The position numbers and the translations under genes were made by a program. A DNA stretch of 64,000 nucleotides from Gordius albopunctatus (lineage: Eukaryota). This document shows, piece by piece, positions 47,297 through 63,760 of the stretch. Every line of letters starts with the position of its first letter. Within the stretch, counting starts at the first letter, position 1. The stretch covers positions 3,038,001 to 3,102,000 of the forward strand of contig OZ193910.1 of NCBI GenBank assembly GCA_964276515.1, in the 5' to 3' direction. The notes below the pieces were generated by a model. That model did not search any database. It worked only from the letters and a program-made list of their open reading frames with translations, and was not told where the DNA came from.

Positions 47297-49131
47297 TCAG
47301 GTTAATAGGGTGTTAGCGGAATAAGTGTTTTGAGACAACTGATTTGAGTGAGCGGAAGTGAGGTGGGCAACTTCTTCATTTTGATAAGAGTGTGTGGGGA
47401 TTCTTGGACAGCGATTGGCAAAATGTCCTCTTTCACCACACTGTTGCATCAATGTTTTCAAAATGTAAAATAATTATAAAACAATGTTCTCACTAAACAT
47501 TATTAAGCCAATGGTGCTATTGAACTTATCATTGTCCAAAAAAATTATATAACATTTTTCCAAATTCAGAAATGAGAACATGCCAAATAACTATGCATTA
47601 AATAACCTAGTAACAATATTATAGGCAAGTGCTGCTGGTCCTTAATTTTTAAACCCAAATTCAAAATCATATCATTAAATATCACTAATTCACCGCTTAA
47701 TGTCATACATAGAGAATCTTATGATATAAATAGATTTAATTAGACTTGATAAATTCTTGTCCCAATATTGGATTAAATCAATAATACATCTAAGGTGTAA
47801 ATTTGTTGCCAAAAATATGTATAATTTTATGAAAAGGTAACTCACCCTAAAACATGTGATGTTATCCATATTTCTATGACCTGGATCTGAGACCTTGGTT
47901 CCCCCAAAATTCTTATATACAAATAATACCAAAACACATATTTTATTTAAGCTATATATAAAACTTAAAAAGGCAAAGGAAGTCATGCAATTCAAAATAA
48001 AAATATATAACTTTGAAGTATTTTTATTAACATAAATAGACAAAAAAATAAAAAATTAGGCTTCAATTGCAAAGAAAAATTGAATTATTATTAACAATAT
48101 ACAATAATTGAGTTGTAAATTTATTTTAAAAAATTGTTACTTTAGTAAGTTGATAGGATGGGAGAGGAATATGGATGAATGGTGCCTGAGAAAGTTGGGA
48201 ATGAGATGTTGCATTAGTGTTTGAGTCATTTTGTAGTTTTGAACAAAATTGTAGCTTATGCCCTAGCTCTCCACAATAATGGCACGTGATGGTCCTCTTG
48301 AGAGGTAAGTTACCAATCTGAGGCACCTCATTTAAGGTTGGTGCATCAAATTTGGGACTTAATGAAAAATAAACTATAGTATAAATCATTATAGATCATT
48401 ACTTACTGAATAAATTTACAAGATGGGCCATCTGGACAAAATCCATTTAAGTAACAGATACATATAACCCTTCTTACATGCCTATTCTTACAACTTGGAC
48501 CTACAAAATAGTACTTCTTTTAAATACATAATTAAACAGTTATAAAAATACAAAATTTACATAATTAGAGCTTTGTGTAAATTCTATATTTCATTTCATT
48601 ACCATGCCGACAAAAGCCTCTAAAATACCAAGGACACTCTTTTATTTTTGATTCAGGGTCAATATGTAAAAAGGGGCATTCTTTGTTATTACAAGCATCT
48701 ATAAAAAACAACCAATTAATTAATTTGTACCTTAGTATTATCTTACTAAATTTGGAATAGAAATAGCATTCTGGCATTTTGCTCATATCATACTCATGCA
48801 GAAACTCACAATCATCACCCTTTTTACAGAGACCTCTTAGCCAATGTTTACACACTACATTTTTATCACCCTACGTTTGTAGTTATTATATACATCTATT
48901 AAGTCACCTTAATATGACGAAATGGGCAGAGTTGACCTAAATTACACAATCCTGTATATTTGAAGGAATTACATATAGCAGCACCGGACTCTAAAGCATG
49001 TTATATTCATAATTAAATGTAATATTACTATCCATTCCAATAAAAGGTAATGATATACACCCGATCTGACTTTCCAAAAAATCCTCCACCTCAAAGCCCA
49101 TGTTACTAACGTTGGCAATCAAATCCTGCAT
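47297..49131 (-). CDS. CPSF4: Cleavage and polyadenylation specificity factor subunit 4 (CPSF30/Clipper), about 302 aa
   Basis: Exons 49131-49029, 48990-48908, 48870-48747, 48698-48603, 48500-48407, 48357-48141, 47893-47846 (acceptor could be 18 nt further upstream) and 47440-47297. Encodes MQDLIANV...LPFIGMDKSGAA, five CCCH fingers (CKHWLRGLCKKGDDCEFLHEYDMSKMPECYFYSKF) and two CCHC knuckles. Confidence 0.96.
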
Positions 49132-51110: not shown

Positions 51111-52272
51111 ACAGACTCTAAAACGCTTGGTTTTCGAAACAATCTCTGTCAATGACCATAATAGCCTCATAACTAAATTTTTCACCTCCATTCATGAGAA
51201 TCAACTGCATGTCAACACCAAATCTTAGTTTTCGGAGGAAACAATAACTCAAATCGAATCCCGCCATAATGTCTTCGAGGACAATTCTCTTAAAGGTAAA
51301 TAAATTTGGATTTAGACGCTCACAAAAAAGATAGAGGCCCATATCAAAAACGCCAAATAAAATTTCATATCTACAAACCATGACAAAACAGACAGCTCGC
51401 TCTAAAAGCACCTACTCCCCATACAAAATACTAAAAACTTTAACCACTAAATTTTCCAACACAATCACTGTTCGATAAGAAATATAATCATAATTCCAAC
51501 GATTCTTTAAATTAAACGATTGCCTGGAAGTAGCACTTCCGCTCTATTCTCACGGTTCCAACCCATTCCACTTACCTGGATATATTTAGAAATTATATTA
51601 CCTTTCACATTATCACATTATAAAGGTAGAGTTGGCCGGGGAGCTCTAATCTACTAAATTATCTGTGCTATTTTACACTACACTAAAATATATGAGGTTA
51701 AGTCTATTAAAAAACGATTAATGGCTTAATTATTGTAAAAATAGACCAAGTAAATATTTTGGTACATAATATGGTATTTCACACTATGATAGAAGCGTTT
51801 TTTTAAATTTAATTATATATGTGCAATTTAGTGAAAATCTCAAAACACGTATGTTTTCTTCAAAACTTTGTATTTTTTACACACTTTGATTTTTAAGAAA
51901 GAAAAGACTACAAAGTATATATGATACAGCAGATGTTATATTTATTCTACGTTTTAAAGATACGATACGAGCTGTATTTAATTAACGCGTGTAAGATCAA
52001 AAGGGGTATACAAACGCGTGGGTATAGAAGCGCGGTGGGGGGTGTGGGGAATCCGTAACTTTTGTATAGGGGATACGACAACTTTAATAAAATTATATGA
52101 GAAGAGAATATTCAACTTTCAATAAGCAGTTTACATTGATTTGATTAATTTATATCAGTTAATACATCTAAGTTTTAGATTAGAACAAAAATATTTATTA
52201 AATTATATTGCCTTAATTATAGCAGTAAAATTTGTGAGTAAATTATACACACAAATTTTAGTGCATTGTAAC

Positions 52273-53703
52273 TAGGGATGGCACAATGGGAATTTTCCAT
52301 TTTCCCGGGAAACTTCCCCGGGGAAAATTCCCCTAAAAAATATTTTTTAAATCAAATATGTATGATCTAATTTAAGTTATATATTATTTTAATTTACTTT
52401 AATTTCATATTTACCTCGTGGTAACCAATATTTTAAATATTTCCTAATTTATAATTTGTGAAAATTTGCCTAAATACTATTAGCATCTAGTTGTTAACTT
52501 AAAAGATTTTGCAATCTACACTAAAGTTAATTATCTCAATAATCAGTTAAAACAATATACCCTTATAGTTACATTAACAATTAGTTCTCTAGTGTAAAAT
52601 TCTTTCCATATAAGGTAAATTTACATATGCTTGTAAATTTAAAATATTTAGTAAAATCATTTAAATTTTATATTGCCATTTTACTCTAAATCTGAAAATA
52701 TTATATACCAACTTAATAGTAAGTATAAGTAATATTTAAAAAATATATCAACTTTTTATTTAACATTAGAGAATTTGCAATCTACACTGAAATTAATTAT
52801 TACAATAATCCTAGATAAGCATTTAAGTTATATTAACAGGTAAATTTACATATACTTGAATATTTAGCAAAATCTATTATATTTTTATTGCCATTAACTG
52901 TGAAAATATTTTTACCAACTTCAAATCAAGTAATCTTAAATAGATATTTATTTTATGCTAGTATTTAGTTTTTTTATATAGAAGTATTTGTTATATCTAA
53001 CTAAATTAAAATTTCTACATTTTATTTAAACTGAATTTACACACCATTTTGGTAAAAATAATCTGTAATCCTTTGAAAACAATAAATGTAAAAATTTAAT
53101 ATTATTAAGCTTATTTTTTTGACTGATAGTTAGTTTTTTTGACTAATAAATGCCAAGAAAAACATCTGACATTTGGAAACATTTTTCTAAACATTTATCT
53201 TCAAATAAGAAAGATTGTATTGCTGTTTGCAATTATTGCAATTTAAAATATACATTTCCAAACTCAACCAAAACGGCAAATCATATAGCTAAGTGACCAG
53301 ATTTTATAAAGGAAAAGAATTGTCAAAAAGTTTTCTTAATGCCCCCTCTCCACAATCATCAATTTGTGAGGTAATGCTTGATGTATGCCCTATACAACAA
53401 ACATCTGCTTCATGTGACCCAAAACCATCAACATCCAATATTATTAGTTACTTTGATAGCATGACCCAAACTCAGCAAGAGAAATTAGATGAAAAATTAG
53501 CATTGGCTATTTAATGATTTTCCTGATTTGCTTCTTTATATTGTTTGACTAATAAATTTTATTAATCTTAATCATACTCGTGAACATTTGTTTATACTAA
53601 TTTACCTGTCTTGCTCGTTATTTCCCCTTAATTTCTTGTTTTTTCCCATTATTTCCCGTGAATTTTCCCTTAAGCGAATTTCCCGGGAAAATATCCATCC
53701 CTA
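52273..53703 (+). mobile_element. Internally deleted hAT DNA transposon (1431 bp)
   Basis: TIR TAGGGATGG / CCATCCCTA, perfect 8-bp TSD attgtaac (52265-52272 and 53704-53711), subterminal ttcccggg repeats at both ends, a diverged internal duplication (about 52500-52940) and a transposase 5' remnant. Confidence 0.92.
53150..53514 (+). pseudogene. hAT transposase N-terminal remnant with BED zinc finger
   Basis: MPRKTSDIWKHF...AVCNYCNLKYTFPNSTKTANHIAK*, with TGA where the last Cys is expected, then after a frameshift ...IISYFDSMTQTQQEKLDEKLALAI. The catalytic region is missing. Confidence 0.8.
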
Positions 53704-53829
53704 ATTGTAACTTAATTTACTTATAAAGGAATATATACAAAGCTATTATCTTAAACTATATTAAAGAAAATCTATAGCAGAATAAAAATGTTTTAAAGTC
53801 AAATTTAGCGCGAATAATGCTTCAGGATA

Positions 53830-53941
53830 CATGGGGGGAGGGAAGGGCGGCTGCCCCCTCTAAACCCAAAAATTAAGTGTAAAATTTCAAAAAATAATCA
53901 TTTTGCCCCCCCCTCTAATTCCAATGCTAGCTACGCACATG
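53830..53941. mobile_element. MITE family A (short)
   Basis: catg...ctacgcacatg termini; flanks tcaggata / acaggata (7/8). Confidence 0.75.
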
Positions 53942-54709
53942 ACAGGATATACAAAAATTAGAGGTTAAATAATTAAGCAATTAGTAATTTATATAATTTT
54001 CTGACCTTTGTAATTCCGTTTATATAATCTCTGACCCGTTAAAAAAATCTCAGGCTCACCGGTGCCCGTTCCATTAATTGCTAAGCCCCTCCGGGTCCGG
54101 CCCGTTAAAATGTTTATGATACAAAGCCCGCCCGTACCCGGCGGTGGGCCAGACGTGTGCAAATAATTGATTGTGTTATTGATTTGTATTAGTGTTTTAA
54201 AAACAGCTGGGTTTTGTTTGGTCGACCTTTGGTTTTAGTTAACTAAACATAAACAAATTAAGGATTTTTGGGTGTGTTCTTATCTTAAGAAATTGATCGA
54301 AGTCATAACAACTTATTTTACGAATGTTAAATAAGGATCCCAGCTAGTTCAAATATGTAGATGATGTGATATTTAAAATATTCACCAATTTAATTCTTTT
54401 GTAATTTATGTTAATTTATTAAGCAATTAAAAAAATAAATGCTGAAATATGTCAAGAGCTGATATGAGATTTTCATAATGGCACCCGGGATGACTCCCGC
54501 GACCAAGACGAGATAAAAAACACTAGCAGTTACGGTTTTAAATAATGTTTGACAAGTTCAAAAAAAACATACCCATTAAAGATGGGTATAAAAAGTTATA
54601 AAAATCCTTAGAAATACAATCGATTGCAAATTCTGTTTAACGTTTAATTTGAGTATTAAAAAGTACAAAAGCTATTATACCACTCAATTAATAACAATTA
54701 CATTTTTTA

Positions 54710-57098
54710 TCAACTATTTGCGATAGTATTCGTAACAAATTTAAGGGAAAACAGCCTTTTTTCCAGGACGCATATTTCGTACATAAACTCTTCTAAGCTC
54801 TGTTCACTAAGGTTGGCCATCATTTCAAAAACTATAGTAAAATAGGAACGAGATGAGTTGGTCATCTCTTCGCCTCTCTTTTCTTTAGTGTAGTCCTTAA
54901 TAAACTGCTGAAAAGCTAATTTAAAAGGTCGCTTTTGCGAAAGGTATTTCACGTTGGGTAAGCGGTCGTGAGACTCTTTATTAGCCAAGTGTAGTCCTAG
55001 CAAGCGGTCAAACACGCTACCTATTACGAAGCAGGGATTATAGCGAGCTAAAGATTCGAGCTTAGCACCGGTTACACTTGACTCAGAGGTGATGGGTGTT
55101 ACTAGAATCTCTTTCTCGAAATTTCCCCGATTAGAGTTATACTCTAATGTAGAATCGGAGGCATTCGGTATTAAGCGCTCAAAGGCGGATGAGAGACGGG
55201 CTTTAAAAGCAGGCCTACCCGATACGTACTTCGTGGAGATGGTGGTTAGACTGTTTTGACTAGACATTAGTCGGTAAGTGGATAGGAGATCGCGGGCATA
55301 GAAGGCTGTATATAGTTGAGGAGTAGGACAATTGAGAGTGTTAGAGAAAGCGGGAACGCCGGAAGGGGGTATAATTACGTCGGATTCGCTCTGTTGCGAT
55401 TCAAAAGATTCCATATTTTTCCGACAAGGACATGAAAGAGTTTGGGTAAGAGTGGGAGATATGTAGTAGTACGCTTCCTGCGGAGAAATCAAAGTGAGAC
55501 TGGATACATCCAAAAGGTTATGCTCTTCCAATTTTGAAATCCAATCCCGCCACCAGGTGGCGAAGCAACAATCGCTGGTGGGCGGCATTAGGTTATTTTG
55601 AGTGAAGTGAGAGTGATAGGCGAGTTTGAGAGCGACGTACAAGTAGGACAAGGTTCTTCCTTCAAAATTGGGCATCAGCCTCGCAACTTTAACTTTGTTG
55701 TAGGGAGGATCTTCGAATCGTAGGTAAGCGCCATCTAGCGGCAAGACCTTTTGCGTTTCGGTGTATATCGAGAGAGCTACCCGAGTGACTTCGGCTATAT
55801 TTAGATTAGAAAAAATAAAAAAGGTAAAACAATTAAGGTGTACCTGGCAAGCATAACATATCGGCGTACGTGGAAATATTAGATGGTAAGTCGGGCTTTG
55901 GAATTTTGGTGGTAAGATCCATGATGTTACATAGCTGAAAACATGAGGCACGGATTAATTTAGTTAGCGGTATGGATTTGTGGATGAGAATTTGATTGTC
56001 GTAAAGCATAAATTTCATGTGCGACGGTAAATTGTCACTACTTCCAAAATAAGCTAGTTTATGTTCTTTTATCAGCCTTTAAATACATCTATTTAATTTA
56101 AAGTATTTGAGTAATTTACCGCAATAGATGAGACAGCTGATATTTTGGAAATTTGATAAACAGTAAACCGAGGTATATGAAGCATATATTGTGTACTAAG
56201 GCTTGTCTTTGAGTCAATAACAAATTTTCAATTTTTTTTTTGAATTTATAAGTTTTATTTTTTAAGGCAAAATCAATGAGGGTTGGGTCAATTTCGTCAA
56301 TAAAACTGGTGCAATATTCGTTAATACATTCACTTTGTAACTGGCAAGCATTATTAAGGCTCTGTTGTGAGTTTGTTGAAACTCTATTTTCATTTAAATT
56401 AATTGGATCCGATTGAGTATTAGCTTCATATTCCATAATAATATCCTTGAAAAGTAAGTCATAATTTGTCTGATTATCACTTTTTATAATATTGTCAGCT
56501 TCAGGTTGTGGATTAAATTCCTCTTTATGTTGTGGTGAGGGGTTTAGGCTATTTATATTATCCCAAGGCAACGGATTGACATTTGATTTTTTAAGTTGAT
56601 GGAGAAATTTTTTTGTAGTTTGCAGATCAAGATTTTGAATACAAACAGCTATATCTCTCAGATGAGGAGAAGGGCCAGGCTGAGGGTTAGATGTAAATGC
56701 TATATCTAAATGTATTTATTTAAGTGGAATAAAACTTAAATAAAAACTTTGTTTTGATAGGAAAACTTTAAATAGGTTAAAAACGATTGATTTAAAAACA
56801 GATGGGGCACCCATATCTACTAATTGATTGCATTGTTTCAATAAAAGTGTTAAAAAAGCTTCATGAAAAGTCCAAGGAAGTCCTTTATCAACTAGAAAAA
56901 CATTAGTTTATATAAAAATATATGCATACAATATTTATCCACAATATCTTTAGAAGAACTTGGAATAATTTGTGAAAATCCAACATCATCTGAATATTGC
57001 TCATAGATAAAGGGTAATTGGGTATTGCAATTTTCACAAAAATAATTTCCATCAATGCATTCAAAAGAGGTACCATGACAATGCTGACAAACTTTCAT
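54710..57098 (-). CDS. TAF1B: TBP-associated factor RNA polymerase I subunit B (TAF1B/Rrn7), about 738 aa
   Basis: Exons 57098-56930, 56891-56748, 56705-56120, 56076-55844 and 55794-54710, all phase-consistent (introns 38, 42, 43, 49 nt). N-terminal zinc ribbon CQHC...DGNYFCENC, then WTFHEAFLTLLLKQCNQLVDMGA, QLSHLLRLIKEHKLAYF and PNFEGRTLSYLYVALKL, in the order of TAF1B motifs. Confidence 0.85.
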
Positions 57099-57099
57099 T

Positions 57100-57345
57100 T
57101 TAAGGTAATGTATCAGGAAATCCTAAATCTTTGAAATCTTCTTTGGCCATTAAATTTTTATTCATGCGACATTCCAAGTAGCTCTTGGCTTCTTTTCTAC
57201 ATTTTGAATTATTTTGTTTGTTTTGTGACATACAGAGCATATATTTAATGACAAATTTTTTGCACAAATTGTTGTGATCAATGGGGAAACTACCATGATC
57301 TGGAGGTATTGTTTTAGCAATCTTTTGTTGAGTCACTGTTGACAT
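57100..57345 (-). CDS. COX19: Cytochrome c oxidase assembly protein COX19 (twin CX9C), 81 aa, single exon
   Basis: MSTVTQQKIAKTIPPDHGSFPIDHNNLC-x9-C...C-x9-CRMNKNLMAKEDFKDLGF carries the COX19 signatures PPxxGSFPxDH, YLECRM and LGF. The first ATG in this frame is at 57345; the ORF-track start at 57372 is a TTG. Confidence 0.95.
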   Translation of the reverse strand: MSTVTQQKIAKTIPPDHGSFPIDHNNLCKKFVIKYMLCMSQNKQNNSKCRKEAKSYLECRMNKNLMAKEDFKDLGFPDTLP

Positions 57346-57830
57346 TAGAATACAATAATTTATTGGCCTCAATTATATCAATATCTGATAAGGGTGGAAT
57401 TGAGTGTGAGTTTGACTGGACAAAGTATCGCGATTTAGAATCTAAAATATTTATTGTATGAGGCTAAAAATTTACCTTGAATTGTATTTAAGGAATTTAA
57501 ATGAGGCGTTATATAATAGTTCAAAACCGTGTATGTAAATAAAATCAAAAAGGGGAAACAACAAACGATCAAAGGAATTAAAAACGCCCAATATCTAAAT
57601 ATAATAATAATAATAAAAATTAGCAACCAACTTCTTGGGATAATAAGTAATTCCAAAATATTCAAAGATGTGGTCAGGGACAAAAGCCCATAATAAGTAA
57701 ATGCCTATATAACAAAAATGCAAATTAATATAAGCTATTTAATCTTACCAAAAACTAAATTTGAAACAATCCATAATACAAATCCATAAACAGCTCGTTG
57801 TGGGCATGGGGAGGGATTTGGTACATTCAT
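57314..57830 (-). CDS. PIGP: Phosphatidylinositol N-acetylglucosaminyltransferase subunit P (PIG-P), 133 aa
   Basis: Exons 57830-57749, 57704-57632, 57594-57476 and 57441-57314 (introns 44, 37, 34 nt). They splice to MNVPNPSPCPQRAVYGFVLW...YLLWAFVPD...GITYYPKKYWA...TPHLNSLNTIQD...IPPLSDIDIIEANKLLY...DC*, matching PIG-P motifs throughout. Missed by the ORF track. Confidence 0.93.
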
Positions 57831-58181
57831 AATTATTAAATAAATCTGCTAAAGTACATGCAACCTTAAACGTCGTTAACAAATGCTGTTGGACAATTTA
57901 TTAATTTGATGTTATTAATACAACCAAAATTTAATTCTAACATTGTCCTTAACCCTGACAGTAACAATAAATGAGAAATAAATTTTGAATAAAAAAGCTT
58001 ATCATCAGGTTATAAGCCTAAGGTAAAAAGAGTTATCATTTTCGGTCAATATAGTAAAGCGAAACTAATGTTTTGTGAATTAGACTAGCAATTGTGCATT
58101 ATTATTTTAATTTTCATATTGTAAAAAAATAATTTTGTCCACATTAAGACCAGGTTTCTACCACTTGTTAGAACCCATAAT

Positions 58182-58500
58182 CATAGATAGACTAATAAAA
58201 TCCTAGACTGCCGAACAGCTGATTTTTACTATTAAAATAATTCATACACAAAAATAGCTTCCATCTAAGAGGAAAAACTCAACAACAGGTAATATTTATA
58301 CTTCTCCATCTCCACGATAAAATATTTCAGAAAATAAAAAAGACTAAGCTTAATTTATAAAAGAACAAAAAATAAGTAAATTAGAACAATAAATTATGCT
58401 AAATTCTATTATTTGGTTTCGATTTCCCACAAAACGGCGCTTGCTATAATTCCTAAAAAATTGTCAGCTGTTCAGCAGTCTATGGTTTTATTAGTCTATG
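58182..58500. mobile_element. MITE with about 35-40-bp TIRs (CATAGACTAATAAAA...)
   Basis: atagactaataaaatcctagactgccgaacagctga at 58187 is the inverse of tcagctgttcagcagtctatggttttattagtctatg ending at 58500. No clean TSD. Confidence 0.7.
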
Positions 58501-63200: not shown

Positions 63201-63297
63201 ATCATAAATTTTGGAGTTGATTTTTATAGCCGGTTTCCGACCTGATGCCAACCCTCCACTTTTTGCACACGGACTTGGGACCGTCGTAGGTAGTGTT
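60209..63297 (-). mobile_element. Apparently full-length (3.1 kb) RTE-clade non-LTR retrotransposon, APE+RT, inactivated
   Basis: APE motifs WNVGTL, CLQETR, YAPQ, GADFNAHVG, SQIDY; RT motifs NYRGIKL, QFGF...STID, FIDLEK, HQGSALSP, with YTDN in place of YADD. (AAG)n 3' tail at about 60209-60220 and 14-bp TSD tccctcttcataat (60195-60208 and 63298-63311). Stops at about 62942 and 62091; frameshifts at about 62810 and 61095. Confidence 0.95.
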
Positions 63298-63760
63298 TCC
63301 CTCTTCATAATGATAATGGATATTATTACAAAGGAATTAGGCGAGGAACTTGGGGCAGTAATCTTTGTAGACGATATATTTATCCTGCCAATAGTGAACA
63401 AGAATCGGCGAATACTGTGAATTGATCAGTAAATGCAATCAAAGTAAGTCTCAGGGTAAATCGAAAAAAACACAATACATGAAGAAAAGTTTAAATCAGA
63501 TGAAGATCAGCAATGTACATTCATTATTTTAGGGAAATAGGAACTTAGCCACATTTTAAGCGGATGGTGGAAAGAATAAAGATATCCAAGCAACGATAAT
63601 CTTTGAATGTCTCAAATGGAGAAAATTAACGGGCATTCTGTGCGACAAAAACATCCCAGGAAGACTCAAAGGTACACTGTATAAGTCCATAATGACGCCT
63701 AGCGTCCATGTAGATAAAAATGCTAAGATGGTGTCATATATGTCACATATGGATTCGTTG
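63298..63760 (+). mobile_element. Old RTE-clade LINE, right RT fragment
   Basis: Resumes exactly at the TSD with SLFIMIMDIITKEL...IFVDDI, later LKWRKLTGILCDKNIPGRLKGTLYKSI. Confidence 0.85.

Follow-up and report, generated by a model that had tools for sequence, protein, structure and literature searches.

The window (the whole 64-kb stretch of nematomorph DNA analysed here) contains candidate genes for PIG-P, COX19 and a TAF1B-like protein, the reading frames of which lie end to end on the minus strand, with a 32-nt overlap between the first two and a 1-nt gap between the second and the third. We tentatively interpret them as one predicted polycistronic unit of the Drosophila type, in which COX19 would be translated by ribosomes re-initiating after small upstream open reading frames (uORFs). 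This interpretation is a narrow favourite, an internal promoter for COX19 being nearly as likely. The features of the locus are as follows.

54710..57098, minus strand: TAF1B-like gene encoding about 738 aa in five predicted exons, with a C4 zinc ribbon at the N-terminus
57096..57102, minus strand: junction of COX19 and the third gene, TAA-A-ATG (stop, 1 nt, start)
57100..57345, minus strand: COX19, single exon, 81 aa, twin CX9C, CHCH match with E 9.2e-7, starting with MSTVTQQKIA
57314..57345, minus strand: PIG-P/COX19 overlap, 32 nt including the stop; frame 0 encodes the PIG-P tail and frame +1 the N-terminus of COX19
57314..57441, minus strand: PIG-P exon 4, coding part up to the stop at 57316-57314; Pfam PIG-P positions 91-121, E 0.086
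57476..57594, minus strand: PIG-P exon 3, ATG-free; Pfam PIG-P positions 43-80, E 2.6e-6
57632..57704, minus strand: PIG-P exon 2; Pfam PIG-P positions 19-41, E 1.1e-6
57749..57830, minus strand: PIG-P exon 1; Pfam PIG-P positions 1-17, E 0.081; start ATG with A at -3
57346..57688, minus strand: ATG-free stretch before COX19, 343 nt in the genome and 272 nt spliced, counted from the last ATG
57836..57859, minus strand: 7-codon uORF with its stop 5 nt before the PIG-P ATG, relevant only if the transcript starts above 57859
58187..58499, no strand assigned: high-copy MITE-like element with 36-nt terminal inverted repeats, bounding the unique region upstream of PIG-P

The dual-coding overlap of PIG-P and COX19, proposed in a preliminary description of this DNA, is real: the shared nucleotides are read as MSTVTQQKIA in the COX19 frame and as YSNVNSDSTKDC* in the PIG-P frame. 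The latter is the C-terminus of a predicted four-exon PIG-P model (57830-57749, 57704-57632, 57594-57476 and 57441-57314, minus strand) encoding 133 aa, and in this model PIG-P indeed lacks an internal Met, as had been claimed. The overlap lies wholly beyond the last PIG-P residue matched by the Pfam model, hence what is read in two frames is a PIG-P tail of 10 codons and not two conserved domains. PIG-P exons match the Pfam profile in consecutive order; two of the matches are clear and two are weak, and no exon alone reaches the curated cut-off. The predicted introns (44, 37 and 34 nt) are all of the GT-AG type, and their size is normal here, as the introns of CPSF4 in the same window are 38, 37, 48, 102 and 49 nt long. 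The CPSF4/CPSF30-like gene that served as the control for intron size encodes CCCH zinc fingers and occupies positions 49131 to about 47300 of the minus strand. When the 40-aa stretch around exon 2 was used as the query for full-length PIG-P relatives, no candidate was obtained, which is a weak blank. PIG-P and COX19 are conserved proteins, and the third frame was assigned by a weak match.

The junctions were compared with two DNA runs of one study, possibly made from the source sample. Contigs of the run X2 across 56794-58232 have 0 differences from the window, and a single gapless contig of the run X1 spans 54226-58233 with seven differing letters, none of the six listed ones being in the junctions.

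Ten alternative PIG-P models with other splicing or intron retention were tried and rejected, their products being truncated or chimeric. It is highly improbable that splicing avoids the overlap altogether, whether by a different last exon of PIG-P or by joining of the exon-3 donor to an acceptor inside COX19 (57336 or 57300), which would fuse PIG-P and COX19 in frame into a chimera. On paper such joins do yield open frames of 169 and 157 aa; however, the modelled exon 4 carries the end of the Pfam PIG-P profile, the 34-nt intron before it fits the 37-49-nt introns of CPSF4, and the first six residues of COX19 are identical in the COX19 of Gordionus, as expected of a used start. The Gordionus protein (CAK9301546.1) is the best of five COX19 matches, with 74% identity, the others having 50-59%. 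In its gene, the PIG-P frame could likewise be closed by a stop at this codon pair, but earlier stops are allowed as well; this is compatible with the overlap but is not evidence for it.

The next gene on the same strand is found 5.6 kb beyond the three-gene cluster and much of the window consists of repeats, so the spacings of -32 and +1 nt do not result from general compaction. Both are within the range given for dicistronic genes of FlyBase, about -34 to +319 nt (PMC4528330). High-copy repeats were seen on both sides of the cluster (52000-54300 and 58187-58499) and none inside it. Elsewhere in the window, a Twister-P1-like ribozyme match (63248-63302, minus strand; 31.3 bits, the gathering value being 67.2; E 0.0087 on the whole window; core kept) is located just 5' of degraded endonuclease/reverse-transcriptase frames (about 63220-60220), which we take to be a non-LTR retrotransposon of the RTE type. 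The minus strand also carries a gene of organic solute transporter alpha (TMEM184-like, about 37130-28280; Pfam Solute_trans_a, E 2.4e-18) with long repeat-filled introns, and a large gene of no clear family (26941-21928) with frames of 216, 1024 and 311 aa, a coiled-coil-like first part and a Lys/Arg-rich basic tail.

The third frame is likely that of TAF1B. Its zinc ribbon matches Zn_ribbon_RRN7 with E 0.022, which is below the cut-off and second in the match list, and it was named TAF1B-like after what we take to be TAF1B motifs. The frame stays open across four predicted GT-AG introns of 38-49 nt, which separate predicted exons at 57098-56930, 56891-about 56748, 56705-56120, 56076-55844 and 55794-54710 (the second donor is uncertain). 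For the last exon, no relatives were found at E<=10 among 3784 candidates, proteins of 631-2000 aa (a weak blank), PDB sequence searches with five pieces of the gene returned nothing meaningful, and the single-sequence fold of the last exon had a pLDDT of 33.9, too low to use. This exon (54710-55794, minus strand) is visibly GC-richer than the first exons and holds most of the listed allelic differences of the two DNA runs.

If the predicted exon model is right, the transcription units of PIG-P and COX19 must overlap; every PIG-P mRNA would therefore carry the COX19 start, every COX19 mRNA would end inside the third gene, and the 5' end of the third gene would lie in or above COX19. As COX19 holds seven internal ATGs, scanning to the third gene is excluded, and ribosomes consequently must either re-initiate at the 1-nt gap or use another transcript, a problem equally posed by COX19/Ppcdc of insects. 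An AATAAA at 57162 inside COX19 could end PIG-P mRNAs there, but this hexamer is common in AT-rich DNA; the poly(A)-like hexamers at 57455, 57364, 57162, 56720 and 54420 were discarded as too frequent in such DNA to be informative. The TAATG formed by a TAA overlapping the COX19 ATG closes only a few codons of the third frame and was set aside as incidental.

Five out-of-frame ATGs are located in the first part of the PIG-P message: four in exon 1 (57826, 57807, 57787 and 57774, corresponding to +4, +23, +43 and +56 of the spliced message) and one in exon 2 (57691, +95), where a 5-codon ORF closes at 57674. These short frames have 5-29 codons and all are closed 257 nt upstream of COX19, with no ATG in between; the preliminary description, which placed the last closure at about 57676 and gave the ATG-free spliced stretch as about 260 nt, was right in both respects, all frames being closed by 57674 and 257 nt separating the last uORF stop from the COX19 ATG. 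Two of the five ATGs have A at -3 together with G at +4. The PIG-P start, with A at -3, does not appear to be in a weak context; the CPSF4 start nearby has C at -3.

Leaky scanning combined with re-initiation after uORFs, one of the routes to COX19 suggested previously, is feasible in view of the frames of 5-29 codons, the 257-nt gap and the resemblance to a layout of the Kaposi's sarcoma virus KSHV, whereas leaky scanning alone does not hold up, because the PIG-P start carries A at -3 and is succeeded by five ATGs that could have been avoided. In mammals re-initiation is associated with uORFs of under 30 codons (PMC5972666), and the 5-29 codons found here fit this limit. A toy model with assumed parameters brought 0.002-0.17% of subunits to COX19 by leaky scanning alone; when re-initiation was included, COX19 was reached by 0.8-4.9% and the third gene by 0.03-1.1% of loaded subunits. 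Raw folding energies of 60-nt windows of the spliced message were weak (-0.5 to -8.8 kcal/mol), with no hairpin or IRES-like sign.

According to the tentatively preferred reading, a single promoter would be located between the MITE-like element (58187) and 57830, and most ribosomes would translate PIG-P. A minority would pass on to the ATGs between +4 and +95, or initiate at -29, and produce peptides of 5-29 codons; having stopped by +112, they would acquire initiator tRNA again within 257 nt and begin COX19 at a low yield, about 1-5% of loaded subunits in the toy model. Any Met in exons 3-4 of PIG-P would create a frame running past the COX19 start, which would explain why none is present here. 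To make the third protein, ribosomes would re-initiate at the COX19 stop, as they must in some form on the COX19/Ppcdc mRNAs of insects, or would use a shorter transcript.

The closest viral counterpart of this scheme among the systems compared is KSHV, in which ORF36 overlaps ORF35 and is reached by ribosomes that re-initiate once they have translated a short uORF and scanned 332 nt (PMC3561293). In both cases the second frame begins before the first has ended, and a short uORF is followed by a scan of about 300 nt. However, the viral uORF is strong and overlaps the first start from upstream, whereas the short frames here begin inside PIG-P, except the weak one at -29.

The ATG-free run was chosen after the fact, and its P values, to be read accordingly, were 0.035 in a codon-order shuffle of the 90 runway codons, 0.015 in a shuffle of all PIG-P codons and 0.026 from base composition. 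Equally long gaps between ATGs make up 3/103 in the other coding sequence of the window and 18/1108 over the whole minus strand. With the protein fixed, P rose to 0.68-0.82 under four silent-recoding models, because only one synonymous change within the run could create an ATG. Codon choice decides on an ATG at six places of PIG-P, and at five of them, all in the first 98 nt, the ATG is present; in total PIG-P has five out-of-frame ATGs, where codon shuffles predict 4.9 and silent recoding predicts 2.8-3.5. Silent sites thus show no avoidance of ATG, and any signal has to be sought in the amino acids. Rarer triplets have long gaps in the same 370 nt as well (GTA 308, TAG 294 and CTA 230 nt).

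As for the amino acids, an in-frame Met is the ATG most harmful to COX19, since its frame runs past the COX19 start. The lack of Met in 132 PIG-P codons has P=0.047 at the Met frequency of the window. Just after the second membrane segment, Met is present in five of the five insect PIG-P proteins in the alignment of PMC2276209 (compared by eye) and absent here, the position falling in the segment that matches PIG-P exon 3; the five insects are related to each other, and PIG-P is the second gene in them. The ATG-free run is mostly dictated by the PIG-P protein, and as evidence it is weak to moderate.

It is nearly as likely as the preferred reading that COX19 has its own start site inside PIG-P, between exon 2 and exon 4, the ATG-free stretch being its 5' UTR. 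This would account for the contrast between the five unselected 5' ATGs and the ATG-free 3' part, introns included (343 nt), and would escape the low COX19 yield of the toy model. COX19 is the first cistron in flies (PMC4528330, PMC2276209), 3' cistrons of flies often have an alternative promoter (PMC4528330), and KSHV ORF37 provides a viral parallel (PMC3561293). The mRNA beginning with COX19 would probably continue into the third gene, as in the fly COX19/Ppcdc, and the PIG-P mRNA would overlap it, ending in or after COX19. Such a promoter, however, would have to sit in a coding region with introns of 34-44 nt, and both fly orthologues are annotated without a monocistronic form (PMC4528330). 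A sigma-70 promoter scan matched its shuffles; it is not meaningful in an animal and was disregarded.

The second route put forward in the preliminary description, a coupled termination and re-initiation in which ribosomes terminating on PIG-P go back about 30 nt to the COX19 ATG, appears distinctly unlikely; it would make the ATG-free run a matter of chance. In the 270 nt upstream of the PIG-P stop, no ATG other than that of COX19 is present, and cellular cases with overlapping frames exist, such as CASQ2 with an about 82-fold lower yield (PMC3923131). However, the TGGGA core of the termination upstream ribosome-binding site (TURBS) is absent from the spliced message (-70 to +787), the PIG-P tail has no runs of aspartate, the first frame is long (133 codons), and the overlap of 32 nt exceeds the 1-14 nt of caliciviruses, where distance lowers the yield (PMC5972666). 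This route would also leave the ATG-free run unexplained. Compared with the TURBS type as a whole (caliciviruses and influenza B), the UGGGA core is lacking before both stops of our locus; the distance between stop and start, within about 14 nt in that type, is too large at the PIG-P/COX19 junction (32 nt) and suitable at the junction of COX19 and the third gene (1 nt).

Nematomorphs are the sister phylum of nematodes. An operon of the nematode style, with one pre-mRNA transcribed from a PIG-P promoter and spliced-leader (SL) trans-splicing at 57442, the acceptor of intron 3, to give the COX19 mRNA and at 57123 to give that of the third gene, is nevertheless unlikely. Besides the position of the host phylum, it has in its favour AGs that precede the starts with no intervening ATG, the distance being 96 nt for COX19, 24 nt for the third gene (97th percentile in either case) and 18 nt for PIG-P (86th percentile). 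Yet the acceptor model is weak, with leave-one-out scores of -7.5 to 3.1 and 57442 itself in the training set; such an AG occurs within 30 nt at 114 of the 1105 minus-strand ATGs; the AG at 57123 lies inside the invariant Leu-Gly codons of COX19; and no match to an SL RNA family was found within the 64-kb window. Since the frames overlap, each trans-splicing event would be an either/or choice with the upstream gene. Nematode SL operons likewise consist of unrelated housekeeping genes closely spaced on one strand, but here the frames overlap or abut, and the intercistronic space for 3'-end formation is absent. No paper combining 'nematomorph' and 'spliced leader' was found in the literature searched, which says nothing either way, and the main texts of the preprints 10.1101/2023.06.26.546503 and 10.1101/2024.06.11.598342 on nematomorph genomes do not contain 'intron', 'operon' or 'splic'.

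The closest cellular precedents come from Drosophila. According to Hayden and Bosco (2008), the transcript of CG14550, named a PIG-P subunit by them, carries a Pcc1-like uORF, and that of CG30290 carries a twin-CX9C uORF conserved to Pancrustacea (PMC2276209); the latter uORF, when matched by eye, appears COX19-like. Crosby et al. (2015) listed CG42498/CG14550, the Pcc1-like and PIG-P pair with a 34-nt overlap, and CG42496/Ppcdc, in which the COX19-like frame precedes Ppcdc with an 18-nt gap, as exclusively dicistronic. The same source (PMC4528330) counts 159 dicistronic, seven tricistronic and two tetracistronic loci in Drosophila; only 45 of the 159 dicistronic loci are exclusively so, and 3' genes often have their own promoter.

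CG42498/CG14550 resembles the locus described here in that PIG-P is combined with a small unrelated gene, in the length of the overlap (34 nt there, 32 nt here), and in the first frame, which lacks an internal Met in five of the five insects listed, apart from the doubled start Met of the fly. It differs in gene order, PIG-P being second there and first here, with COX19 as the partner; no Pcc1-like frame was found upstream of PIG-P among the 14 frames scanned. CG42496/Ppcdc resembles it in having a larger unrelated gene directly after COX19 in spite of many internal ATGs, whereas the downstream partner here is TAF1B-like and COX19 is preceded by an overlapping gene. The leaky-scanning bicistrons of green algae and the fly stoned/Snapin locus (PMC11291117) share with our locus a Met-free first frame and a small mitochondrial protein; however, in those bicistrons the first start is weak and ATGs ahead of the second frame are few, while the first start of our locus carries A at -3 and five out-of-frame ATGs come after it. 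The locus does not fit the pattern of a plain leaky-scanning bicistron.

The neighbours of COX19 were also surveyed on metagenome contigs, in the best 80 of 169 COX19-bearing stretches, many of which were short and none of which came from close relatives. In these 80 non-nematomorph loci, neither PIG-P nor the third gene had a match with an E value better than 0.15, a blank of little weight. PPCDC is located just downstream of COX19 on the same strand, with gaps of 1-134 nt, in 11 of the 80 loci (best 80 of 169), which are not independent, several being from the same organism. COX19 of the PPCDC-linked loci holds 5-10 internal ATGs, and in one of these loci (L013) the COX19/PPCDC junction consists of the same seven letters, TAA-A-ATG, as the junction of COX19 and the third gene here. 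Among the other same-strand neighbours are a gene with a ubiquitin domain, 26 nt after COX19 (L001), MED7 about 640 nt before COX19 (L002), a rhodanese-domain gene ending 24 nt before it (L011) and a MOB-family gene 132 nt after it (L027). COX19 swaps its neighbours, yet often stays tightly packed. A further locus, L041 (502-3160), has five same-strand frames around COX19, spaced by 13, 25, 4 and -8 nt, with 553 ATG-free nt before the COX19 start; it looks like part of a very compact protist genome and not of an animal one.

Shared mRNAs of small housekeeping genes are known in flies, where PIG-P and COX19 are both listed, with other partners. New here are the adjoining of PIG-P and COX19 to each other and the addition of a third gene, in a different phylum; no report of a PIG-P/COX19/TAF1B pairing was found in the literature searched. 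In practical terms, gene finders that forbid overlaps on the same strand will truncate or drop either PIG-P or COX19. The locus is well suited for asking how packed genes are expressed in a nematomorph, the options being ribosome scanning of the insect kind, internal promoters, and spliced leaders of the nematode kind. If the trans-spliced operon were true, operons and SL trans-splicing would date to the ancestor that nematodes share with nematomorphs, and there would be operon genes with overlapping frames and with acceptors inside the upstream coding sequence. More generally, the comparison suggests that packing on shared transcripts may be a lasting property of PIG-P and COX19, while their partners change.
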